NCBI GenBank assembly: GCA_965208675.1 | Contig: OZ242351.1 | Location: 1,440,001-1,504,000 of the forward strand | Direction of reading: 5' to 3' | Origin: Candidatus Poribacteria bacterium | GTDB lineage: Bacteria; Poribacteria; WGA-4E; PCPOR2b | Length of the DNA stretch: 64,000 nucleotides | In this document: piece by piece, positions 46,653 through 62,347 of the stretch | Numbering within the stretch: position 1 is the stretch's first letter | Layout: each line of letters opens with the position of its first letter | Program-made: the position numbers and the translations under genes | Notes under the pieces: generated by a model | What the model was told of the DNA's origin: nothing | Seen by the model: the letters and a program-made list of their open reading frames with translations, nothing else | Database searches by the model: none

Positions 46653-46806
46653 CACGGCAAACACGTTAATTCTTACCCCAATTCCCGCGCTTCTGCAAAA
46701 AAATCGCCCTCCGATCTAATCATTTGCTCCGTTAGTGCATCATAATATAATAGAAGGCAATGACGTTGATGGCATTGCCGCCTTAAGCCGCACAACTTCG
46801 GGAGCG

Positions 46807-49800
46807 ATGAATATGGCTAACAGCGATGCCGAACTCATCCAACGCACCTTGGATGGCGATGATACCGCGTTCGGGTTCCTGGTCGACAAATACAAAGGCG
46901 CGGTCCACGCGCTCGCCTATCGTAAAACCGGGAATTTCCACACCGCAGAAGACATTACGCAGGACACCTTTTTCAAAGCCTACGAAAAACTCCACACGCT
47001 CAAGGATTGGCGGCATTTCCCAGGCTGGCTCTACAGAATAGCGTCACGGCTCTGCTTGATGTGGCATCGCAATCGGCGGGTGGTACCGCAACCGCTCGAA
47101 ACGGTTAACAGCGGTCACATGGATGCCCTGGCGTGGGCAAAGCACACCGACCAGCAAACCCGACAATCGGTACGTGACGGGTTGGAAGCCCTGCCGGAAA
47201 GCCAACGCACGGTCTTGACACTGCACTATCTCGGTGGGATGACGTGCGAGGAGATTGCGCGGTTCATCGGCACGTCGCGCGGTGCGGTGCTTAACCGGCT
47301 TTATCATGCCCGACGTCAATTGAAAAAGGAGATGATGCCGATGATGGAGAAAACACTGGGCACATTTCAGTTGCCGCCGACCTTCACCCAACAGATGATG
47401 AATCGAATTCACCGAACACCCCCAACAACCACGCCCCAAGGCAAACCGATCTTGCCGTGGATTGCAGCGACAGCGTCGCTCGTGTTCGCGCTGATTATCG
47501 GACTGGGGCAACAGGCAATGACGTGGTTTCAGCAACCGTACAGTCTTGACGCAGTCGCACCGGCGAGTCGGATTGAACTCATTGACGCGCCTATGATTCC
47601 CATACCCGAGACAAAACCCGATCTAATCAATCGTCCGGGCCGATTGAACCCTCGAGACGACAAGAAAGGTATCGGACCGAACGGAACATATTTTTCGGCG
47701 GCGGCAAACGCCGACGTGGGTAGAGAACGCAACGACAGCAAATGGACGCAGACTAACGGGCCTTACGGTGGCAGAACTAACACACTATACCGGGCGTCAG
47801 ATGGATCGTTATATGCATTAACGGATATGCAAGTGTTCCGTTCTAGCAACCATGGCGATTCGTGGGTTCAAGTCTACAACAGCTTAACTGCCAATCCTGC
47901 CGATTCGTGGCTTTCCGGAACAATTACGGACGCGAACGGCGTACTGTACATTAATACAGCCGCGACCATTCTATATACAGACAACCGCGGCGAATCGTGG
48001 CAACAGATAAACTACCTTTACGGGGCAGATACAGCCATCAGGACGTTCAGCGTGATCGGATCGCGAATCTACATCAGCCGAGTTAAAGATGGCGTTGCTT
48101 ACTCTGATGATTACGGCGAATCGTGGAACGCCATTCGAGACGGTTTACCGGCTAAACCGCCCGACAAATTTGCGACAGTTGGAAAAACGCTATTCGCTAA
48201 GGTGGACAACGTCATTTTTCGGTTAAGAGAAGGCGAAACGTCGTGGACGAAAAACACAAACCTTCCCAATCTCCGATTTCTCATCGCCGAAAAGAAGGCG
48301 TTGATTATTGGAAGTCAGACCGATTTGCGACGTTCATTGGACGAAGGTGAATCTTGGACGTCGATGACAAATTCAACGACTGTGCAGGTTCATAACATGA
48401 TATCGGGGAAGAAAATTGTGAAGGAGCGGGACATTCGCTCTCTCATAACCGCAGGAAATGAAGCTTTACAGCTTACAAGCCCGTTGGAACCGACTCGTTT
48501 AACAGAAGAACTTGAGAATTGGGAACCTACGACACGAGGACTAAAGGATCAATCTTTAATCATTGAAAATGTTGCGGCGTTTGGCGATACAAGGTATGTC
48601 CTGCTCAATGACGGTACGTTGCTGCGCTCCACAGACATAGGTCTTTTAGGCACAACCGAAGCGTCCAGCTTGAGCAGATATTTCATATCAACAGACGGTT
48701 TGGCCGCGCCTTCAGAGCGTGAAATCTGTAAAATGGGAAACTACGTCATTTGGAATACAATGGTAGCAACCGGATTGGACACTCATTTCGTGTCAGTCGA
48801 TAGCATAGCGGCGGTATCGGAACATGTGGTTAGTATTTCCAACGCAGCCGGGATATTTCGGCTGACAGACGGCGCGGAATCCTAGAAACAAACCAATGAG
48901 GGGCTTGTCGGATCGATGGTGCAAAGTCTCGTATCTTTCAAGGACGCACTGTATGCCTCGACTCACAATCGCAACGGTGTTTTCAAGTCTGCAGACGGCG
49001 GCGACCGATGGACGCCGATTCATAGTGGTTTGCCAACGACGGATGTAGGAGCGCTCGCCATATCGGGGGAAGCGCTCTATCTTGGAGTAAATGAAGATTA
49101 CTTAACGGGCGTGGAAGACCGAACCTATACCGGCGGAATCTATCGTTTGGCAGATGATCGGAATTCATGGATTCCGGTGCAGACCGAAATGCGCACGGAT
49201 TACAGGCTCAAGGGTTATAACCAAATGTACAGCGTTGACGTGCTTGTAATTTCCGGAGAAACCTTCTACATCATTGCCCAAATGGGAAGCGGTTTCCGGC
49301 TTTATCGATGGCGGATCGGCGAGCGGTATTGGACGGATATCAGTCCTCATCCAGAAAATTGGATTTATGGAGGGAACGATGAGTTAACCGGCCTTTCTGT
49401 CGCAAACGAGACCATTTATATCGCTGCAGACATGGATCTCTATCGTTCGCGCAACAGCGGAGACACATGGTCGAAGATTGAGTTTCGCGTGTCTCCTTCT
49501 TCGCGCTACCTTCCCCAAATAACAGGAGCTGTGATTTTGGGAAAGGCCGTCTTCGTTTCGACTCGAGAATCGGGTGTGTTTCGGTCAAGCGACGGGGGCA
49601 AAAACTGGGAATCGGTCAACGGCGGGTTGCCGCAGGGGTATACTTTGGAACTTCACGTGATTGGGAATGCGCTTTATGCAACGGACAGTGCTCAAGGTAT
49701 CTATCGATTCAGGGATGGCGGGGGTACTTGGGAATTCGTTAAACCGTCGGTTTCAAATATGTTGTCGGGTGCACTGACAATCGTGGACGGGACGTTATAC

Positions 49801-49860
49801 GCCGGCATGGGAGAGAGCGGTGTGTATCGGATCGCGTTGGATAACGCCGACCGTGATTAG
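46807..49860 (+). pseudogene. ECF sigma factor-TM-beta-propeller fusion interrupted by an in-frame TAG
   Basis: ECF sigma2/sigma4 (AEDITQD.F, WLYRIA, EEIA..G), one TM helix, then S.D.G.SW Asp-box repeats. TAG at 48883-48885 is in frame with the 48916..49860 ORF. Confidence 0.7.
49569..49841 (+). repeat. Left copy of ~280-bp direct repeat (3' end of propeller gene)
   Basis: Aligns by eye to 62059-62340 with about 30 substitutions and one 9-nt indel. Confidence 0.9.
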
Positions 49861-49931: not shown

Positions 49932-52900
49932 TCATGCCCAATTTTCACACAACGCCTCGGCTTGTTCTAGGACGGTCTCGGCAGCTTTGGCTTGTTTGTC
50001 GGGCGGGTAACCATAGCGCCGTAAGATTCGCTTCACCAATCGGCGCAGGTTGGCGCGGACGCTCTCCTTCATCGTCCAGTCGATGGTCACATTGTTGCGG
50101 ACGGTTTTTACGAGTTCCGTCGCTATTGTGCACAGGGTCTCATCTCCCAGCACCTGCACGGCACTATCGTTGGTTTCAAGCGCGTCGTAGAATGCCAATT
50201 CATCGCTCGTTAGCCCCAACTCCTCGCCGCGGTCACGCGCCTGACGCAACTCCTTCGCCGTTTGAATAAGTTGCTCGATTACCTGCGCGGCTTCTATCGT
50301 CCGGTTTTGATAGGCGCGAATCGAGCGTTCCAGCATTTCTGCGAACGACCGCGCTTGTACAACGTTTTGCCGCGAGTGGGTTTTGATTTCATCGTTTAGC
50401 AGCTTGTCCAGAAGTTCGACCGCGAGGTTTCTTTGTGGCAAATTGCGCACCTCTGCCAAGAATTCGTCGGAAAGAATTGAGATGTCCGGCTTCTCTAATC
50501 CCGCGGCGGCAAAGATGTCTACTACCCCTTCAGGAACGACCGCCTTGGATACCAACTGCTTGACGGCGAGTTCTGCCGCCTCGGACTGGGACTCCTCTCT
50601 AGCCGTCAGTTTTGCCAAGACACCTCGCACCGCTTGGAAAAACGCGACATCGTCCCGTATCTTGATTGCGCTTTCGTGCGGTACGACTAGCGAAAAGGCT
50701 TTGGCGAGCGCAGCAACCTCTTTCAGTAGACGGGTTTTGCCATCTTCCAAACCCAAGATGTGTTCTTGGGCGGCGGGGAGCAGTCTGAGACGTTCCTCGG
50801 CGTTTCCGTCAATCCACGACGACCAATCGAACGCATGAAACAACCCGGAGCAGATTTCGTACTTTTCCAGCATTATAGCAATCGCTTCAGCTTTATTGAG
50901 GGAGGGCTTGCCCTTTCCGCCGTTGTCCGTATAGTTAGTTAAAGCCTGCTTTAGATGGTAACCAATTCCGATGTAGTCTACAATTAGACCGCCGGGTTTT
51001 TCGCCGAATACGCGATTGACGCGCGCGATGGCTTGCATCAGGGCGTGACCTCGCATCGGCTTATCAACATACATAGTGTGAAGACTCGGCGCGTCAAAGC
51101 CGGTCAGCCACATGTCGCGGACGATTACAAATCTCAACGGGTCATCAGGGTTTTTAAATCGAACTGCCAGTTCTTCGCGCCGCGATTTGTTGCGGATATG
51201 CGGCTGCCACGACTCGTCCTCCGACGCCTCGCCCGTCATTACAACCTTTATGAATCCCTGCTTGTCATCTTCACCATGCCAATTCGGACGTTTTGCGACA
51301 ATGGCGTTGTAAAGATCAACACAGATTCGGCGGCTCATACAGACCACCATCGCCTTGCCGTCCATTGCATCCAATCGCTCTCCGAAATGCGTGATGATAT
51401 CATCGGCTACTAGACCCACACGCTTCTCCGTTCCGACCAGCGCTTCAAGCTGAGCCCATTTGGATTTGAGTCTCTCCTTATGCCTTTCCTCCTCTCCTTC
51501 GGTCACCTCCTCAAATTCTGGGTCAACATGAGGTTTCTCGTTCTCATCCAACTCAATTTTGGCGAGTCGGCTCTCGTAATAGATTGGGACGGTGGCGCCG
51601 TCTTCAACTGCTCGTTGTATATCGTAGATGCTGATGTAGTTTCCGAAGACGTTTCGGGTGTCACGGTCGGTCCCCTCAATGGGGGTGCCGGTGAAACCGA
51701 TAAATGATGCGTTCGGAAGTGCGTCGCGCATGTGACGGGCGAATCCATCTATAAAATCGTACTGGCTGCGATGGGCTTCGTCCGCTATGACAACGATGTT
51801 TCGCCGGTCAGAAAGTTTTGGGAATCGACGTTCTTCATCTTTAGGAAAAAACTTCTGTACTGTGGTAAAGACCACGCCGCCTGAAGCCACTTTCAGGAGT
51901 TCGCGCAGATGTCCTCTGTCCTTCGCTTGAACAGGTATTTGCCGCAAGAGCTGGTTACATCTAGCGAACGTGCCGAACAGTTGGTCGTCCAAGTCGTTGC
52001 GGTCGGTGATAACCACCAATGTCGGGTTTTGCATTTCCGGACGCAGGATAATGCTACCGGCATAAAATGCCATAGTCAAGCTCTTGCCCGACCCTTGTGT
52101 GTGCCAGATGACGCCGCAACGTCTGTCCCCGTCCGGACGCGACGCTTTCACGGTAGTGTCAACGGCGGCGCTAACAGCGTGGAATTGGTGATAACCGGCG
52201 ATTTTCTTGGCAATCGTATCGCCGCCCATTTCCTCAAAGACAATAAAGTGCTTGAGATAGTTCAGGAACCGCTTCTTGTCGAAGAGTCCCTTGATTGTCA
52301 CCTCCAGTTCCAGATCGGACGATGCGGCTTCGGTTTCTCCCTCAATTGTCCGCCACGGCATGAACCGTTCCTTATCTGCGGTCAAAGCGCCAACGCGGGC
52401 TTCCAGCCCGTCAGAGATGACCAGCGCCTCGTTGTACGTGAACAGCCGCGGAATTTCCTGCTTGTAGGTCTGAAGTTGGCGAAATGCTGACCAGACAGTG
52501 GCATTTTCGTCGGTCGGGCTTTTGAGTTCAATCACGCCTAGCGGAATACCATTGATAAACAGCACGATGTCCGGACGCCGTTCGGTTGCCCCCATCACAG
52601 TGAACTGATTAACCGCTAACCAGTCGTTGTTTTCGGGGTTCCCAAAATCCACCAATCGCACGCGGTCTCCACGAATAGTGCCATCTGAACCCCGATATTC
52701 GACCTCCACACTATCAACCAACATTAAGTGAAACGTCCGATTGTTTTGAACCGGTGAGGGAGAGTTCGGAGAAATCACTCGTTGAACGGCTTCTTCCTGA
52801 CATTCGGCGGGGATGTTCGGATTCAGGCGAGCAACCGCATCGCGCAGACGCTGTGTCAACACCACGTCATCGTAGCTTGAACGTTCGGCACTAGGCATCT

Positions 52901-53003
52901 CAGGAGCAATGTCAGGACCGTGTAGGACGGAATACTCCATACCCGCTAGCCAATCCATTGCCGTTTGTTCGACATCGGATTCGTAAATTGTAATGGGATT
53001 CAT
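49932..53003 (-). CDS. hsdR: Type I restriction enzyme R subunit
   Basis: [16 protein letters not shown] nuclease motif, [21 protein letters not shown] and MWLTGFDAP. Confidence 0.95.
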
Positions 53004-53081: not shown

Positions 53082-54146
53082 TCATTGCTCCGTCGTTTGC
53101 TGTTGAGTGTAGCAAGCAACAAAATCGCTACTGTCAATATCCGGCTGTCCTTGGCGTGCATAATACGAAGAAAAGCGCGATACAATATCCTTTACGAAAG
53201 GAGGCGATATCTGAATTGAAGGTATTTCAAACTTATCGTCGAATTCATCTATTGCGAGCGAATGCAGTTTTCTGAAATTGAGAACTCCACCCTCAAAAAA
53301 AACAGTTGGCGGTAGCCAATGAAAATATTGGTGCTTGTTTTTCACAAGACTCTCGACACGGTCTTTTTTCCTACTTCCTTTAAGTGCATCGCTCATGCTT
53401 TCGATGTCAACCAAGAGAATTTGCTCTGTGTTAGATCTGCCGTTTTCACCTCTGACTACAAGGTCGCACGCTGGACTCAAAATCACAAACGGACGATCGG
53501 TTGTCTTATCTTTTACAATACTCCCGGTGGTGATATTGTCCGACATCGGTGGATGGAGGTAAACCTCCTCTGGAAAACACCGATCTTCACCTTCCTCAAG
53601 CAGTTCAAACAAGTGGTTTAGAGCGTATCGGAGGAGCGCCCTTTCAGTGCGCGCCGAATCTTCCTTACCATAAGAAACCCACGTTGCCAACTGTGGAAGA
53701 AGGTTCTTCAGAAAGACTTGGGTTAGGTGAATCTCAATTTCTCCTCGACCTCCCATTATTCGAGTGAGTCCTGTATCAAAGATCTTTTGAAACAAGAGCA
53801 AATCGGATTCATATGTAGATTCGTCACGCGTGCGTTTCTTAATCACCGAAGGATGATCGTCCACGGAATCAAGGAAAGCTGTGACAAAAATGACCGGTAT
53901 ACGGGTAAATGGGAGGCCTAGTTGGTGTAATAATTCATTCCCACCTTTTTTATCAAAACCCAACCACAAATCAATTATGGCACCATCAAAAGAACCATCA
54001 ATATTGTTCAAAGCCGCCGAAATGTCAGCAAAAATTTCGTACTCGACTTTTGAATTGTATTTTTCATTGAAAAACTCAACAGAATCTTCAAATAATCGTT
54101 GTTGATCTTCAGCATCCTCAACAAGCAGAATTTTCATCGTATTCAC
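53082..54146 (-). CDS. Response-regulator receiver domain fused to a putative PemK/MazF-like C-terminal domain
   Basis: ILLVED, AIIDLWL (phospho-acceptor Asp) and IFVTA; C-terminal GSIV...RPFVILSP...RFSSYYARQG. Confidence 0.75.
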   Translation of the reverse strand: MNTMKILLVEDAEDQQRLFEDSVEFFNEKYNSKVEYEIFADISAALNNIDGSFDGAIIDLWLGFDKKGGNELLHQLGLPFTRIPVIFVTAFLDSVDDHPSVIKKRTRDESTYESDLLLFQKIFDTGLTRIMGGRGEIEIHLTQVFLKNLLPQLATWVSYGKEDSARTERALLRYALNHLFELLEEGEDRCFPEEVYLHPPMSDNITTGSIVKDKTTDRPFVILSPACDLVVRGENGRSNTEQILLVDIESMSDALKGSRKKDRVESLVKNKHQYFHWLPPTVFFEGGVLNFRKLHSLAIDEFDDKFEIPSIQISPPFVKDIVSRFSSYYARQGQPDIDSSDFVACYTQQQTTEQ

Positions 54147-56302
54147 CCTTGTTTACCGTTTTTAGGTTGGAGTCTGAAATAAGCCCCATCATTTGACTCA
54201 AATGCTTTTAACTCAAGGCCATTTCTTTCTGCGGCTTCACCAGCTATGGTTAGTCCTAGACCGGTACCGTTAGGTTTGGTCGAAAATTGAGGTTCAAAGA
54301 TTATTTCACTCGCAATGTGGCTTGGTTCGATCCCAGGGCCAGTGTCACGATAGTCAATATGTACTAGCGAATCACGGTCAGTCAGAAGTGTAACGGTTAT
54401 GTTTCGTTTGGAGTTTTTTTTCTGGTTAATCCAATAGAGACTATTGTCGATGAGATTTGTAAATATTGCGTAGATATCTTGGGACCAAAAGGGGAACTTG
54501 AAATTGTCGGGTCCTATAATGTCAACAGATACCTTTTGCGTTTTCATTTCTCCTTCAAAGATGGACAAAGTGCCATTAATAGCTTTCTTCAAGTCCAAAT
54601 GTTTTTTTGCGCCTCGTTTTCCCGCGGCGAGCGGATCCAGCCGACGAAACAAGTGCACAAAGAACTCCATATTCTCCAATACGCCGGTAGCGATTTCCTC
54701 AAGTTTCACAATAGTATTGAAATCCCGGTTTTTTTGAAAGGAGTTTACCCAAGATTTTAGATGTGGTATTCGATTTTGAAAATAACTTAATGGCCGCCTG
54801 CCTTCATGGAGGATGACGTTCACGATTTTCCCAAGTGTGGCTTGACCCTGATATATGGCAACTGCTTGCCTAATTTCATCGGCACCTTTGTTTTTTTCTT
54901 CTTGTACTTGGATAACGATTTGATCGATCATTTCGGCCGTAGACTCATCAACGCCCCGACTTTTGAGTTGCCTTTGTATTTTTGACCTCATTGGATCGAA
55001 GGAAAAGAGGCGCCCTAACTTGTAGTCTACCTTTCGAGAAAATCTGCCTAGCCCTACTTTGTCCCTGTAATCGAAACGTAAAACTTCAAGCTCCATTATT
55101 ACCGCTGTGGTCACTTTACGTAGCAGATCGAACGCCTCATTTTCCCTCAATCCATCACGTGCGCTCTTTTCAATCAAACCAGAATCATTTTCGGATTCTA
55201 TTTGCACGTACCCTATTGCCTGATCGCTGCCGATGCACATGGACGGGTTTTGCACGCGTCTCGAATTGAGTTTTAACCAGTCATATTCGGCATCGCCCAG
55301 CGGACGAATTCGGAATCCACTTCGGTAAACACCGATACCGTTGTATTTGTTCAAAAGCTGTCTAGCTTCAAGTTTTCCGACTGAATTGCCCAAGTCGTTG
55401 GTGGAACTGCGCTGCACTAAGGCATCGATGGATTCTTTATCTCTATCATACACTCGAATATCAAAATCAAGATTACCACAACCTGTTGGTTTTTTGAAAT
55501 CAAACCGTAGCTCTTGTTTAACGGTGTTTCGAGCTTTCTGTGAAGAATATTCCAAGGTGCCTTTACCATCTATCCCGATATTACCTGCAATTTTATAGTC
55601 GTAGAGTTCAAAGAGTGGAAACGGTTCAACAATTTCCTCAAAATCCTGAACCCCAACAAAACCCCTAACCGTAAGATTAATTCGAAATTCGTCATTTGTA
55701 AAAATACTGCCTACTGGTGATTTCAGTTTCTTCAACTCAAATTGGAGCTTCTGAAAGCGGTCTTTGTTCCACTCCACAACACGCTTTGAATTTCCATGCA
55801 TAGTTAACCTAGTTCCAGATGGTCGAGTGGTTTTCTGTGTTTCAATGAGTATTTCTACATCATCAAGATATTCGGCTGTATGAAAGTCATTCCATTCAAG
55901 ACAGACGGTTGTTTTTTCACCGTCAGCGTTAACGGTCTCAAGAAGTAGATCGTCACCAAGGATGGACGAAGCATAGCGCCCTATACCTTTTCGGCCCTGC
56001 AATGTCCTACCGAGTGGACTCGTGCCCCTGTCACGTTTGTCCCGGGTTGAGGGCACCATCCATTTATGAATAACGTCGTTCCTAGACATGCCGTGACCAT
56101 TATCGTCAACCACGATTGCATACGTTTTCCCGTTGGAAGATGCTTTAAATTCAATATTTACATAAGTAGCATCAGCATCGTAGGCGTTTTTCACTAACTC
56201 GACTACTGCGGCATGATTGTCCTGAATTAGGTCTTCCCCTATCGTTAGAATGTGTCGTCCCGCCGGTCTAATTTTGTAGGTTGTGTGAGTGTTCACATCC
56301 AA
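54143..56302 (-). CDS. MORC/GHKL ATPase-histidine kinase fusion
   Basis: N-terminal ELVKNAYDADA, DDNGHGM, GRKGIGR and GT motifs; C-terminal HEGRRPL, NLIDNS, DTGPGI, FEPQFSTK and GTGLGL. No TM segments. Confidence 0.85.
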   Translation of the reverse strand: MDVNTHTTYKIRPAGRHILTIGEDLIQDNHAAVVELVKNAYDADATYVNIEFKASSNGKTYAIVVDDNGHGMSRNDVIHKWMVPSTRDKRDRGTSPLGRTLQGRKGIGRYASSILGDDLLLETVNADGEKTTVCLEWNDFHTAEYLDDVEILIETQKTTRPSGTRLTMHGNSKRVVEWNKDRFQKLQFELKKLKSPVGSIFTNDEFRINLTVRGFVGVQDFEEIVEPFPLFELYDYKIAGNIGIDGKGTLEYSSQKARNTVKQELRFDFKKPTGCGNLDFDIRVYDRDKESIDALVQRSSTNDLGNSVGKLEARQLLNKYNGIGVYRSGFRIRPLGDAEYDWLKLNSRRVQNPSMCIGSDQAIGYVQIESENDSGLIEKSARDGLRENEAFDLLRKVTTAVIMELEVLRFDYRDKVGLGRFSRKVDYKLGRLFSFDPMRSKIQRQLKSRGVDESTAEMIDQIVIQVQEEKNKGADEIRQAVAIYQGQATLGKIVNVILHEGRRPLSYFQNRIPHLKSWVNSFQKNRDFNTIVKLEEIATGVLENMEFFVHLFRRLDPLAAGKRGAKKHLDLKKAINGTLSIFEGEMKTQKVSVDIIGPDNFKFPFWSQDIYAIFTNLIDNSLYWINQKKNSKRNITVTLLTDRDSLVHIDYRDTGPGIEPSHIASEIIFEPQFSTKPNGTGLGLTIAGEAAERNGLELKAFESNDGAYFRLQPKNGKQG

Positions 56303-57555
56303 TTCTCCCTTAACTTTTCGGCTATTTTCTGTGATAGAAGAACAGGCACCGCGTCGCCGATTTGGCGAAATACAGGAGTTCTTCTGGGTTTTCCGCCACG
56401 ACTTTCAAAGTAGTAGTCGTCTGGAAACGTCTGTAATCTAGCCGCTTCTCTAGGCGTGAGAGAACGATTCTGATTTATGTCAGGATGAATATAATAGTGG
56501 CCGTCGTTCGCTAAGTGTGCGACAATAGTATGGCAGAATGGTAGATTTTGAGCAACTACTTTAAATCGATCGACGAATGACTTACGCTGACGATGAGTTT
56601 TTAAGCGCTCTGGCAGATCATTGTAATTCAGTCGAGCCATTTTATCATTCCAGAGTTCTACGGCAATTCTGTAGATTTCAAGATCCTGTTGAGAGTTCGG
56701 CCGTGCTTGGTGCCATGTGACTGGGTAATTATCACAACGTATACCAACGTCGTACATCCACACCCCTTTGTAAGGTGCGACGCTACATGGTCCTGCGACG
56801 CCTTGCCCCGAATTAATCGCTGGGAGATCGGCTAGAATTTCTTCCACAAGAACTGTGGATACACATTTTTTCGGTTCTGGATAGAAACCTTCGGACTTTC
56901 CTCGTTTTCCAACAATTATCGTCCTTTTTCGATTCTGCGGGACGCCGTAATCTTTCGCGCACAGAGTCTGAACTTCCGTCGCATAGCCGCATTTACGGAA
57001 CTCCTGCCGCATAAGGTTCAAGTATGAGACTCCTCGCTCATTCTTCGCGGACAGAAGACCGGTTACGTTTTCGAACAAAAAATGAACCGGCCGGTATCTC
57101 TCTAAGAATCTAGCGTAAAACACATACAAATAATTCCGTTTATCATTTTTCATTCGGTCGCGTAAACGAGAGCGTCCTACTAGCGAATAAGCTTGACAGG
57201 GGGGACCGCCGATAATCAAGTCTAGTTTCTTACCGTTTAGCAAACTATCAAGCCGATCAAAGATACTTTGAAGGCTTACGTCAGAAATGTGTGAATTGAT
57301 AACAGAATCTAACGCCGTTCTCGGCACTTGTGAATATAAATCCGCTCGGCTAATGTGTCGGTTGAGATATTTGTAATATAACTCCCCATTCCCACATCCA
57401 TTTAGCCACCGAAATGCCATGCGTGTTCGCAGTGTGTAACATGCAGCTAAATCCATCTCAACATGGGCAATTGGATTAAATCCAGCGCGCATGAACCCCT
57501 CCGAGAGCCCGCCCGCACCTGCAAACAAATCGAGATAATTCAATGTCCTGCTCAT
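56293..57555 (-). CDS. dcm: DNA (cytosine-5) methyltransferase
   Basis: DLFAGAGG, GGPPCQ, FENV, PQNRKR, REAARLQTFPD and IGDAVP motifs. Confidence 0.92.
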   Translation of the reverse strand: MSRTLNYLDLFAGAGGLSEGFMRAGFNPIAHVEMDLAACYTLRTRMAFRWLNGCGNGELYYKYLNRHISRADLYSQVPRTALDSVINSHISDVSLQSIFDRLDSLLNGKKLDLIIGGPPCQAYSLVGRSRLRDRMKNDKRNYLYVFYARFLERYRPVHFLFENVTGLLSAKNERGVSYLNLMRQEFRKCGYATEVQTLCAKDYGVPQNRKRTIIVGKRGKSEGFYPEPKKCVSTVLVEEILADLPAINSGQGVAGPCSVAPYKGVWMYDVGIRCDNYPVTWHQARPNSQQDLEIYRIAVELWNDKMARLNYNDLPERLKTHRQRKSFVDRFKVVAQNLPFCHTIVAHLANDGHYYIHPDINQNRSLTPREAARLQTFPDDYYFESRGGKPRRTPVFRQIGDAVPVLLSQKIAEKLRENWM

Positions 57556-57904: not shown

Positions 57905-59584
57905 TCAACTACAATCATATAGTCCCTTCTCCGTTCGACGGTCACATGAATCCCCTGATAGCAGTTTTGGTAGTAGAGTGTCGCGCAACTGAGAAAGTGT
58001 GTGTGATTGGTTCTCATTTGCTTCAATCCTAGCAAAAAGCGGATTCACAATTGAATCAAAACGGTGAAGTATCGAATCCGGTGGTAACGCGAATCGATAA
58101 CTAGGAACACCATCTTTGCTCAAATGTAACACCGTTGTGCCCGTTGTATATCCATTAATGTGAGCCTGGAAGGCATGACTTCGAAACAAGCAATAAAGGA
58201 ACCAAACGGAAACCGTTGATTCTAAGGGGCGGATTATTCCCAAATCCAACGATGCAACAAGTGTTTTATATTCACTGCTGGCTTGAACAAGTGCTGGTTT
58301 GCCAATTACCTCCGCTTCTTGTGTCACATCAGTATAGGAAACAACAAGCTCACCCGGGGTGATAACTTGTTCCGGTTTGTATCGTCCAGTATAAGATTTC
58401 AAGCCATCGGGACGGTAGCCACCACCACGCAAAATTGATTTTAGTGTAACCAACGCAGTGTCCGATTCTGTTAATTCGCTACTCTTGTATGAACGCCCTT
58501 TGACTATCTCAACAAGATTACCAATTTGTTCTATCTTCCACCCTTCCGGCATCTTTCCCAACGACGAATCCTGAAATGTAGATGGGAACAGAGCCGCGGA
58601 TTCGGCATCCATGCCAACGGGTTCTCGTCCCTCCGTTTTTGCCTGCACGGGATCAAAGTCCACAAACCACGACTTGAAGATAGCTCGTGCCATCGCCTCC
58701 AGCGTCTCGTTCATCTGCCGGTTGAGTTCCATTTTGTCGTCGAGCGAGCCGAGGATGTGGGCAATGCGGCGTTGTTGCTCAATGGGCGGAAGCGAAAGTT
58801 CAAACAAACCTATCGAATCAGGCGCAACTCTTTGTCGTCCTGTAGTACCTTGCATGGAATGAACCGCAAATGCTCTGAGTCTTGGATCTCTTGCTAAATA
58901 GTAAATGAACAGATTATCTGTTTTACCTTCGATTCCGGAGAGCACGATAAATTCAGTCGATCCATGACCAACTTCATTAGCTTTTAAGCAATTTACATAC
59001 GCAGTTTTACCGTTTTCGAGACAAGGAGTGATGCGCGCCAAAAGCGTATCTTCATTCTGAAATCGTGTGGCAGATCCATTGAATTCCTTAAATGAGTGTG
59101 AAGCAATTTCCCGTCTGAATGCTTCAATATCTTTCATAGAAACATGAGGTGCGGTTTTTCCTCTATGAAGCGTCCGGCGTGGGTTGATACTAACAACGTT
59201 ACCCAGTCTCACGAGCTCCCAGCTGTTATTCTCTTGAGTCCAACTTTGACGACTGTACTTCGATTCAGCAGTTTTTTTGCCTAATTTCTGTTCTTGTATC
59301 ACTTCATATCCTACAACAATCACGTTCTTGAAACTATCTGAAATCGCGTGCCAATCCTGAAAATCAACCCGAATTGGAAGGTCGGATTCCTCGAATGCCT
59401 CTTGCAATTTGCGCATTCGTCTCCGACTTAGCCGTTCATTGCCCACAACCGCAAGATCGAGATCGGAGTAATCTTTTGCTGTCCATTTGACTCGCGACCC
59501 GTAGGCGCGGACTTCACAATCGGGAACATGCTCAGCTAGTATGTGTTGAATTGTTTCAAGATATTTGGGATTGAGGTCAATCAT
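57905..59584 (-). CDS. hsdS: MNT (minimal nucleotidyltransferase) domain fused to type I RM specificity subunit
   Basis: First ~97 aa contain YGSRVKWTAKDYSDLDL (GSx10DxD). The rest is a two-TRD HsdS with LPP.EQQRRIAHILGSLDDK.ELN and LRDTLLPKLLSG. Confidence 0.88.
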   Translation of the reverse strand: MIDLNPKYLETIQHILAEHVPDCEVRAYGSRVKWTAKDYSDLDLAVVGNERLSRRRMRKLQEAFEESDLPIRVDFQDWHAISDSFKNVIVVGYEVIQEQKLGKKTAESKYSRQSWTQENNSWELVRLGNVVSINPRRTLHRGKTAPHVSMKDIEAFRREIASHSFKEFNGSATRFQNEDTLLARITPCLENGKTAYVNCLKANEVGHGSTEFIVLSGIEGKTDNLFIYYLARDPRLRAFAVHSMQGTTGRQRVAPDSIGLFELSLPPIEQQRRIAHILGSLDDKMELNRQMNETLEAMARAIFKSWFVDFDPVQAKTEGREPVGMDAESAALFPSTFQDSSLGKMPEGWKIEQIGNLVEIVKGRSYKSSELTESDTALVTLKSILRGGGYRPDGLKSYTGRYKPEQVITPGELVVSYTDVTQEAEVIGKPALVQASSEYKTLVASLDLGIIRPLESTVSVWFLYCLFRSHAFQAHINGYTTGTTVLHLSKDGVPSYRFALPPDSILHRFDSIVNPLFARIEANENQSHTLSQLRDTLLPKLLSGDSCDRRTEKGLYDCS

Positions 59585-59990
59585 TATGCGCCTCTAGCGT
59601 GATGAAAAGTTGTCTTGCGTCATGTGCAAACTTGGTCGCATCCTCAAATACACTTTGAGCAGTATCTTCATTGTAAACATGAGAGGTCTGGTTGCGTCCG
59701 AAGTGATAATCCATCCAAAGTTCTACATCGGTGATGAGGCGATTTTCTGCCGCTAGGCAATATAGTTTCCGACGCGTAACACCGTCAACGTAGGTGTTAC
59801 CGACATTCTCTTTAAGCCATCGCTGTATCATTTTCCAACAAAGTTCGTACACCACCTCAAAATTATGAATGACTCCGGCGCGCACCGTGTCCTGCAAATC
59901 TTCCTCCCAAGTCTCCATATTACTCGCTGTTCTGATAGAACGTTCCAAAGCGCCCATAGCTTGTGCCAAACTGTCCAATTGTAAACTCAT
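59577..59990 (-). CDS. HEPN-domain protein (HI0074/HepT-like toxin)
   Basis: AGVIHNFEVVYELCWK and RNQTSHVY (Rx4HxY). Stop overlaps the MNT start (ATGATTGA). Confidence 0.88.
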   Translation of the reverse strand: MSLQLDSLAQAMGALERSIRTASNMETWEEDLQDTVRAGVIHNFEVVYELCWKMIQRWLKENVGNTYVDGVTRRKLYCLAAENRLITDVELWMDYHFGRNQTSHVYNEDTAQSVFEDATKFAHDARQLFITLEAHND

Positions 59991-60198
59991 TGTTTATCCC
60001 TATACTCTCCACCGTTTCCAAGTTCGCTCAATGGATTCTCCAAGGCCGGTTGAACAGAGTGAACCCTTCCGACTGACCTTCTAAATCTAGTCTTCTGACC
60101 GCTGGCAGCCAAATGCATCATTGTGATAGAAAACCATTCGGGTGTTCAATTGCCTTATCGCTACGGTAGTTGGCGTCTAAACTCCTCGTCACCGAAAC

Positions 60199-61809
60199 TC
60201 ATGAACTATCTTGAAATCCGACTATTTTTAAACTCTCGGCAATAGCCTCGTCCTGCCGTCTTGCCTCCGCCATCTGATCCGCCAGTCGATTCGTCAGTCG
60301 GGTTATTTTCTCCTCAAACGGCTCATCGTCATCCTCTTGAGCTTCGGCGCCGACGTAACGACCGGGGGTCAAGACACTCCCGTGTTCGTGTATCTCCTCT
60401 AAAGTCGCGCTTTTGCAGAAGCCCGGGATATCCGAATATTCGCCTGCTGCTTCAGCGCCACGCCAAGCGTGGTAGGTATCGGCGATGCGGGTTATGTCTG
60501 CTTCGCTCAGTTCGCGGTGTACACGGTCAATCATGGATCCGAGTTTCCGGGCGTCAATGAATAATGTTTCGTTTGCACGTTCCCGGAAGCGCGGGGCTTT
60601 TTTGTCTCGCGCCAGAAACCAGAGACACACGGGGATTTGCGTGGAATAAAACAGTTGACCCGGCATGGCGACCATGCAATCAACCAAGTCTGAATCAACG
60701 ATATTTTTGCGTATTTCGCCTTCAGTGGACGTGTTAGAACTCATTGAGCCGTTCGCCAATACGAATCCGGCGATGCCGTTGGGCGCGAGGTGATAGATGA
60801 AGTGCTGCACCCACGCAAAGTTGGCGTTGCCAACTGGCGGCGCCCCATACACCCAACGTTTATCATAACGCAATCGCTCACCGCCCCAGTCACTGCTATT
60901 AAACGGCGGATTAGCTAGAATGTAATCAACTTTCAGGTCGGGGTGAAGTTCTCGGTGGAAACTGTCTGCGTGCTCCTCTCCAAGATTGGCGTCAATGGCG
61001 CGGATGGCGAGATTCATCTTCGCCAACTGCCACGTGGTCGGGTTGGACTCTTGCCCGAAAATTGAGATGTCGTCGCGCCCTCCGCCGTGCGCTTCAACGA
61101 AGGCTTCGCTCTGGACGAACATGCCGCCCGAACCGCAACATGGATCGTACACCCGTCCCTTGTACGGCGCCAGCATCTCAACGAGCACCTGCACAACACA
61201 GCGGGGGGTGTAGAATTGACCGCCCCTTTTGCCTTCGGCACTAGCGAATTGTGAGAGGAAATATTCGTAGACTCGACCGAGTATATCTTTTGAGCGATTC
61301 TCCTCTTCTCCCAAACCGATTGTGCCGATTAGGTCAACTAATTCCCCGAGGCGGCGCTTGTCGAGCATCGGACGGGCGTAGTTTTTAGGAAGCACACCCT
61401 TGAGGCTCGGGTTTTCGCCTTCAATCGCAATCATGGCATTATCAATCAGGGTTCCAATTTCCGGATGCTTGGCGCTGCCTTGCAGATAAGACCAGCGGGC
61501 TTCCTTAGGGACGTAGAAGATGTTTTCTGCCAAAAATTCATCGCGGTCATCGGCAAACTGGACACGGGCAGTTTCGTCTTTGAGGTAGAGCTCACTCTCA
61601 GGATTCGCAGATTCTGAAAGCAGCAAATTGTACCTTTCCTCGAAGGTGTCTGAAATGTACTTGAGGAAGATTAACCCCAACACCACATGTTTGTATTCGG
61701 CGGCGTCAAGGTTATTGCGGAGTTTGTCCGCCGCTTGGTACAGGGTCGCTTCGAAGCCCAGCGCCGCGCCGTTATTCTTGGATTTTGTGTTTCGTTTCTT
61801 TTTCGCCAT
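60199..61809 (-). CDS. hsdM: Type I RM modification subunit
   Basis: [19 protein letters not shown] and FVLANGS motifs. Start could be 61809, 61845 or 61875. Confidence 0.95.
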
Positions 61810-62058: not shown

Positions 62059-62347
62059 ATCGGGCGTGTTTCGGTCAAGGGACGGTGGCAAAAACTGGGA
62101 ATCGGTCAACGGCGGGTTGCCACAGGGGTATTCTTCGGAACTTCACGTGATTGGGAATACGCTCTATGCAACGGATAGCGCTCAAGGTATCTATCGATTC
62201 AAGGATCGCGGGGATACTTGGGAATTCGTTAAACCGTCATTTTCACAAATGTTATCCGGCATGTCGGGTGCACTAACGATCGTAGACGGGGTTTTATACG
62301 CTGGCATCGGCGAGGGCGGTGTGTATCGGATTGCATTGGAGGATTGA
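62059..62347 (+). pseudogene. Right copy of direct repeat: orphan 3' fragment of the ECF-propeller gene
   Basis: Encodes GVFRSRDGGKNWESVNGGLPQGY...GVYRIALED*. Homology stops abruptly at 62059. Confidence 0.8.

Follow-up and report, generated by a model that had tools for sequence, protein, structure and literature searches.

In a type I restriction-modification (RM) operon of a Candidatus Poribacteria bacterium, the MNT antitoxin of a HepT/MntA-type toxin-antitoxin (TA) pair forms the N-terminal domain of the specificity subunit HsdS, and the gene for the HEPN toxin lies directly upstream. The operon was found in a 64,000-nucleotide stretch of contig OZ242351.1, termed the window. This MNT::HsdS fusion is real and widespread, and it is apparently an undescribed variant that joins a known kind of TA pair to a known kind of RM system. 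No description of an MNT-HsdS fusion was found in the accessible portions of the full-text literature searched, including PMC3632139, PMC2701414, PMC12839542, PMC12707154 and PMC2993543; this search covers text, so that the fusion could be drawn in the figures of PMC3710099. The available part of the PMC7641770 supplement contains nothing relevant to the fusion. The hsdSp gene of Zymomonas mobilis ZM4, which was deleted in PMC8432527, was considered as an example and rejected: it encodes a 420-aa HsdS in an operon of R-M-S order with no HEPN gene annotated in the records seen, and it does not match the MNT query. The PADLOC HsdS profile PDLC03138 already includes the MNT domain, and six Atlas clusters contain both Pfam families under the HsdS name.

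Our preferred reading, which is tentative and to which we give a probability of roughly 45%, is that a type VII HepT/MntA pair was captured by the operon, that its antitoxin supply became coupled to HsdS, and that the pair may act as an addiction or back-up module.

The locus and its fused gene

The genes run on the minus strand in the order hsdM, HEPN, MNT::HsdS, followed by dcm, a GHKL/histidine-kinase gene, a receiver-protein gene and hsdR.

60199..61809, minus strand: hsdM, type I methyltransferase with NPPF (Pfam N6_Mtase and HsdM_N; PADLOC MTase_I, E 5e-228; best PDB match 3khk); probable ATG start at 61809, longest ORF from 61875
59577..59990, minus strand: HEPN of the HI0074/NTase_sub_bind family, 137 aa (PF08780, E 2.5e-31; TIGR01987 above cutoff; PDB 1jog, 8xdj)
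57905..59584, minus strand: MNT::HsdS fusion, a single ORF of 559 aa
59294..59584, minus strand: MNT domain of the fusion (aa 1-97), HI0073-like, GSx10DxD intact, Trp34 in the G-loop (1no5, E 2.7e-22; model against 1no5, TM 0.96)
59228..59293, minus strand: linker (about aa 98-119), flexible, without stop or Met (pLDDT below 50 at aa 104-119; 1-32 aa and unconserved in relatives)
57905..59227, minus strand: HsdS part with TRD1, central conserved helix, TRD2 and distal helix (PF01420 twice; PADLOC Specificity_I, E 1.6e-102; Foldseek matches to HsdS structures)
56293..57555, minus strand: cargo, C5 cytosine methyltransferase, dcm (PF00145, TIGR00675)
54143..56302, minus strand: cargo, GHKL ATPase fused to a histidine-kinase ATPase domain (PF13589 and PF02518; homologues in loci L031 and L065)
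53082..54146, minus strand: cargo, receiver-domain protein with an unclassified C-terminal part (weak PF00072; Atlas clusters without a common Pfam family)
49932..53003, minus strand: hsdR, HindI-like type I endonuclease/motor subunit (TIGR00348, E 3e-188; PF11867)

The first-pass annotation had described hsdM, HEPN and one 559-aa MNT::HsdS ORF with an intact GSx10DxD motif and no internal stop, and the ORFs and Pfam matches bear this out. The end of the HEPN gene overlaps the fusion ORF by 8 nt (ATGATTGA), an overlap that is also present in 31 of the 35 unfused pairs scored. Pfam places Polbeta/NTP_transf_2 at aa 10-96 and Methylase_S from aa 121 onward, and the linker of about 20 aa contains no stop between the two domains. 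The MNT motif reads GSRVKWTAKDYSDLD (GSx10DxD, aa 29-43), with the Trp34 codon at 59485-59483. An AlphaFold2 model of the fusion (117-row alignment, pTM 0.74) has high confidence in the MNT and HsdS parts, while linker residues 104-119 have a pLDDT below 50 and are predicted to be disordered. In Foldseek, the model matches HsdS structures and HI0073 (1no5, TM 0.96, superposition 1.0 A).

The nearest named relatives are from Candidatus Poribacteria. An independent protein, P0002, contains an MNT 96% identical to that of the window, followed by the same linker. Because of this shared linker, and because both domains occur in all 120 matches listed in the protein search described below, the junction is not an assembly error. 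An assembly artefact or a one-off read-through was rejected, since the same architecture is found in P0002 and at many other loci.

According to PMC7641770, class I HepT/MntA pairs comprise a PF08780 or PF01934 HEPN with RX4HXY and a neighbouring MNT with GSX10DXD. The window has a PF08780 HEPN with RX4HXY next to a PF01909 MNT with GSX10DXD, which supports the earlier assignment to the HepT/MntA type as a class I module. The surrounding system is a HindI-like type I RM, with hsdM, an hsdS that encodes two TRDs and two conserved helices, and hsdR. PrrC and RloC are marked by an N-terminal ABC-ATPase fused to HEPN, whereas the window HEPN stands alone with one Pfam family.

Several further features of the region were observed. 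An in-frame GTG with a weak SD is found at 59302, and it could serve as the start of an MNT-free HsdS. As a family feature, a conserved internal hsdS restart at the end of the MNT was rejected: a GTG is present in 12 of 25 fused and 14 of 26 unfused loci, with similar SD energies. A scan of the locus for promoters and terminators gave results at chance level. At 57905-57950, beside the dcm cassette, the HsdS C-terminus leaves the family consensus after LLSG, and its last residues differ from the GEIRV consensus. The 208-nt gap between hsdM and HEPN (59991-60198) is possibly a cargo remnant; the two genes abut in most Poribacteria loci. On both sides of the RM island of about 12 kb lies a direct repeat (49569-49841 and 62059-62340, 85-91% identical). 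It is a copy of the 3′ end of the 48916-49860 gene, a pattern expected of an integrated island. Judged from translation only, 46735-48885 encodes a long repeat-rich region joined to an ECF-sigma-like N-terminus, and 48916-49860 is a second repeat-rich ORF that continues it.

Distribution, selection and cargo

The fusion is not confined to the window. A search with the window MNT among proteins of 307-979 aa gave 749 matches from 799 candidates, and Methylase_S is present in all 120 of those listed. The best 150 representatives at 50% identity comprise 91 HsdS fusions, 35 proteins with other or truncated tails and 24 stand-alone MNTs. When GTDB was scanned with a pattern built on the C-terminal half of the MNT, at least 592 relatives were found in at least 600 stretches, from which the best 80 loci were kept. 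The first-pass annotation had suggested a search for further fusions and their HEPN neighbours; among these best 80, 45 are fused and 35 are not, and an Rx4HxY HEPN lies directly upstream in 40 of the 45 (two as fragments). In the same 45, hsdM is upstream in 42, with the other three near contig ends, and hsdR is present, whole or partial, within the fetched flank in 33. The 35 unfused loci have the HEPN motif in 33 cases and RM genes nearby in 3. Thus, in the best 80, RM-embedded members of the MNT clade are nearly always fused (45 versus 3 adjacent ones not scored as fused, one of them contig-cut). The fused loci of the best 80 represent eight named phyla, but as 17 are from Chloroflexota and 13 from Poribacteria, their counts are not independent. 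A fused copy is found on a Zymomonas plasmid; in Z. mobilis ATCC 10988, the pZMOB01 operon has the order hsdM, HEPN, MNT::hsdS, hsdR. No match to the window MNT was found in phage records, and of 1285 matching E. coli records the 15 listed have their matches within hsdM only.

Variants of the architecture were also seen. Tandem MNT-MNT(-HsdS) forms occur in P0003/L046, P0183, P0158, P0191, P0192 and P0209, some with one catalytically dead copy, and in P0196 and P0237 the fusion is interrupted midway by a DUF559 nuclease-like domain. At L008 and L078, hsdM, HEPN and MNT::hsdS are present with no hsdR in the 7.3 and 5.5 kb downstream, so that a Ronin-like decoy arrangement is possible.

In all 39 fused loci with a full hsdM, the protein shares 58-88% identity with the window HsdM and belongs to one HsdM family. 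When 82 fusions were clustered at 50% identity, the MNT formed 1 cluster, TRD1 33 and TRD2 43; the MNT is conserved across fusions while the TRDs vary. Of 224 fused proteins, 222 retain an intact GSx10DxD. In four fused groups, median dN/dS was 0.11-0.23 for HEPN, 0.08-0.15 for MNT and 0.05-0.18 for HsdM, using only pairs with dS of 0.05-1.5, and the window HEPN has pairwise values of 0.17-0.27. By this measure, HEPN and MNT are under purifying selection. Distances in the TA pair and in HsdM are moderately correlated (rho 0.46, 36 loci), partly from shared taxonomy.

The position between the hsd genes is itself a cargo hotspot. Between their hsd genes, operons of this family hold 130 cargo ORFs that fall into 77 clusters, and the 43 representatives scanned include PIN, HicAB, MazF, Fic, DarT, TIR, Schlafen, Mrr and other HepT/MNT genes. 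In the window, the dcm, GHKL ATPase/histidine kinase and receiver cassette (53082-57555) sits between hsdS and hsdR; its kinase and receiver genes recur in two Poribacteria loci (L031:9834-13195 and L065:10406-14287), and the C-terminal part of its receiver protein has no common Pfam family. The abundance of TA and defence families here suggests that the HEPN/MNT pair might be one more ordinary passenger: a tolerated read-through would have been locked in once hsdS lost its own start, and the TA pair would be indifferent to the RM complex. We regard this as unlikely, although several observations are consistent with it. When HsdS were ranked by their central conserved region, the nearest 120 comprised 61 with an MNT and 59 without; by eye, about 12 of the 59 start in linker-like sequence and may be mis-called fusions. 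Split HEPN-MNT-hsdS copies are found on Acetobacter plasmids. A single clade of fused MNTs was rejected by an AU test on the HEPN+MNT tree (42 rows versus 33, p 5e-45), which is unrooted and fits either many fusions or one fusion with many escapes. Relic linkers remain at the ends of some free MNTs (L044, L048, L070), and a few linkers contain a relic Met with an SD (L081, L027, L045). In addition, HsdS tolerates an N-terminal fusion, as in the engineered HsdM-HsdS of PMC6158711. Against an indifferent passenger stand the near-constant fusion of RM-embedded MNTs, the fact that surrounding cargo differs from locus to locus while the HEPN/MNT pair keeps its place, and the association of the fusion with a tryptophan described below, which a passenger does not predict.

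The toxin, the tether and the G-loop tryptophan

The window HEPN carries RNQTSHVY at aa 99-106 (59696-59673), with Tyr106 as the acceptor, and His42 and Glu45 at its metal site. In the closest characterised relative, the Legionella HEPN, the RNase site is the Gln44/Glu47 Mg2+ site and not Rx4H, and Arg and His mutants stayed toxic (PMC11586414). An intact Rx4H therefore does not show that the window HEPN is active. His replaces the metal-site Gln in 39 of 120 near HEPN homologues. Cys78 of the window stands in place of a nearly invariant Arg, which 74 of 75 aligned loci and 118 of 120 homologues retain; the change, found in 2 of 120, is real, since the two nearest relatives have the Cys too. 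The window toxin may be attenuated, against which stand its pairwise dN/dS values of 0.17-0.27.

Elsewhere the toxin is often disarmed. Among the 45 fused loci of the best 80, HEPN is absent from three (L025, L031, L065), split in two (L042, L066) and motif-less in one (L082), and four more have Glu45Lys, which makes 10 of 45. The three of these best 80 loci whose MNT is closest to that of the window have lost HEPN. A divergent, long-branch HEPN with the motif RIxTxHDY precedes ordinary fused MNTs in Dehalococcoidia (L030, L040, L051, L074, with fragments in L066). At L048:6406-7345, a Trp-type MNT truncated just past the linker is preceded by a PF01934 HEPN, which suggests toxin replacement.

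A tethered MNT that persists without its toxin could have another target. It might nucleotidylate an RM subunit as well, or be a structural part, with HEPN secondary. The intact 550-aa fusion of L065, which has an intact motif and no HEPN, the dead proximal MNT copies kept in tandem forms and the other HEPN family at L048 are consistent with such repurposing. We nevertheless consider it very unlikely: HEPN is present in most fused loci and is under purifying selection there, its losses may be recent, and half of the nearest HsdS have no MNT.

Under the preferred reading of addiction or back-up, one HindI-like type I family would have acquired a pair of the HI0074/HI0073 subfamily between its hsdM and hsdS genes. 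Loss of the MNT stop codon would then have turned the MNT into the N-terminal domain of HsdS, held by a flexible tether, and the fused unit would have spread as a module while TRDs were exchanged. From what is known of the family, we infer toxicity, AMPylation and any trigger of the window pair: the tethered MNT would oligo-AMPylate Tyr106 of HEPN and keep the RNase silent, as AMPylation by a short MNT has been reported for the closest characterised pair (PMC11586414). The amount of antitoxin would equal the amount of soluble HsdS. If the 5′ part of hsdS, or the synthesis or stability of HsdS, were lost, HEPN would remain unmodified and growth would stop; the pair would thereby serve the operon as an addiction or back-up module, and no clean deletion of the pair would be possible where hsdS has no start of its own. 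The trigger would be a lost protein supply and not a conformational switch. HsdS is poorly soluble without HsdM, and hence the coupling would extend to hsdM. Several findings limit this reading. Besides the disarmed toxins, a 3′ disruption of hsdS leaves the MNT whole, and so much RM inactivation would escape addiction: a canonical HEPN adjoins a disrupted hsdS in L030, L039 and L071, where L039 and L071 retain TRD1 and the central region and the hsdS frameshifts may be sequencing errors. Addiction was not detected for the Phd/Doc-like pair in the pneumococcal tvr type I locus (PMC6265443), which counts against an addiction reading. Moreover, addiction or back-up does not explain the retention of Trp34.

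Trp34 is the sixth position of the MNT motif, a position occupied by Gly in HI0073, in the Legionella MNT and in most free MNTs. Among the best 80 loci, all 45 fused ones have Trp, as do 10 of the 35 unfused ones; the GTDB pattern did not include this position, but its ranking and the protein searches used Trp-type queries. The ten unfused Trp loci comprise 7 that are RM-free and 3 that are RM-adjacent, one of these contig-cut. Across fused proteins, 219 of 224 have the equivalent Trp. The fused Zymomonas MNT has Trp while its split Acetobacter sister has Gly. With the Trp column masked, independent pairs on well-supported branches changed in the same direction in 3.8 of 5 cases and in the opposite direction in 0 (p 0.125); on the best tree, which includes unsupported branches and leaves out L052, the values were 7-9 of 11 and 0. 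In L070, a free MNT with a relic linker nested among fused ones, Trp has become Cys. Unfused Gly codons were considered as single steps from TGG, but this was rejected, as GGG accounts for only 4 of 17 with no clear enrichment. The association suggests a fusion-linked constraint, and it hints at functional coupling.

Such a coupling would be the basis of a guard. The state of the M2S(R2) complex might determine how active the MNT is or whether it has access to HEPN, possibly through contact of Trp34 with HsdS, HsdM or DNA. The MNT might then be switched off by an RM inhibitor such as a DNA mimic, or by the loss of HsdM, so that newly made HEPN would stay unmodified and the infected cell would arrest. 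We hold both this dependence and this trigger to be possible but doubtful. Beyond the Trp counts and the uniform direction of the independent pairs, a guard is favoured by the G-loop being solvent-exposed in the Legionella MNT (PMC11586414), by a catalytically dead HsdS-proximal MNT that retains Trp in P0183 and P0158, by the two loci without hsdR downstream, and by the precedents of PrrC and Ronin. Conversely, the dead proximal copy in P0191 and P0192 has no Trp, Trp persists in the 7 RM-free loci of the best 80, and no fused-specific column was found in the HEPN alignment. The only link between MNT and RM seen in the window is the covalent tether, which is predicted to be disordered and which in relatives varies from 1 to 32 aa with no conserved sequence.

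The first-pass annotation had proposed that tethering the antitoxin to HsdS lets RM inhibition release the RNase. A general form of this idea, in which neutralised RM releases RM-linked HEPNs, is already proposed in PMC3710099. The tethered antitoxin stands in so far as the fusion is widespread and selected and Trp hints at coupling; release by RM inhibition has found no support so far. Neutralisation in the HepT/MntA family is a covalent AMPylation (PMC7641770, PMC11586414), and consequently simply freeing the toxin does not undo it. In addition, the tether is flexible and lacks conservation, loci that keep the fusion have often lost or altered HEPN, including where the MNT is closest to that of the window, and a canonical HEPN is found by a disrupted HsdS at three loci.

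Significance and comparison with known systems

The in vivo trigger of HepT/MntA toxins has been named an open question (PMC7641770). If the guard were true, a type I specificity subunit would also serve as an antitoxin, and HepT/MntA systems would have a physiological trigger. If addiction by covalent coupling were true, a type I operon and a TA pair would be mutually locked in by a new means. To our knowledge, few RM guards are known. The presence of the fusion in at least eight phyla offers a direct test with one operon, one residue (Trp34) and natural fused/split sister pairs on plasmids of Zymomonas and Acetobacter, bacteria that are harmless and in culture. Deletion of hsdS for better transformation could be lethal in strains with the fusion, and annotation pipelines conceal the MNT domain as 'restriction endonuclease subunit S'. 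What is new here is the fusion-linked Trp of the G-loop; the fusion itself ties the toxin to the defence system.

The closest known relatives are the pairs of the HI0074/HI0073 subfamily from H. influenzae (1jog/1no5) and Legionella (8xdj/8xeh). These share with the window a PF08780 HEPN with Rx4HxY, the HEPN gene in first position, and a short MNT with GSx10DxD and no alpha-4 helix. They differ in that the window MNT is the N-terminal domain of HsdS and has Trp for the Gly of the G-loop, and in that His and Cys in the window HEPN take the places of the metal-binding Gln and the conserved Arg, respectively. In FhepTA (PMC13000451), an MNT likewise functions inside a fusion protein, but it is fused to its own toxin and not to an RM subunit.

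Among systems linked to RM, PrrC, with EcoPrrI (type IC), is also a HEPN nuclease encoded within an hsdM-hsdS-hsdR operon. However, PrrC is an ABC-ATPase-HEPN protein that is silenced by the RM complex itself, whereas the window has a small HEPN with its own enzymatic antitoxin, which is the fused partner. The pneumococcal tvr locus (TvrAT inside SpnIV; PMC6265443) has a TA-like pair between hsdM and hsdR, but this pair belongs to the Phd/Doc family, is unfused and acts mainly by recombinase repression. Ronin (HsdMS and RonA; bioRxiv 2023.04.06.535777) also links a toxin to hsdM and hsdS, and its cell death in response to ArdA or Ocr is the behaviour that a guard would predict for MNT::HsdS. 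Its toxin, in contrast, is a 61-aa membrane protein, hsdR is usually absent, and its HsdS has no antitoxin domain.
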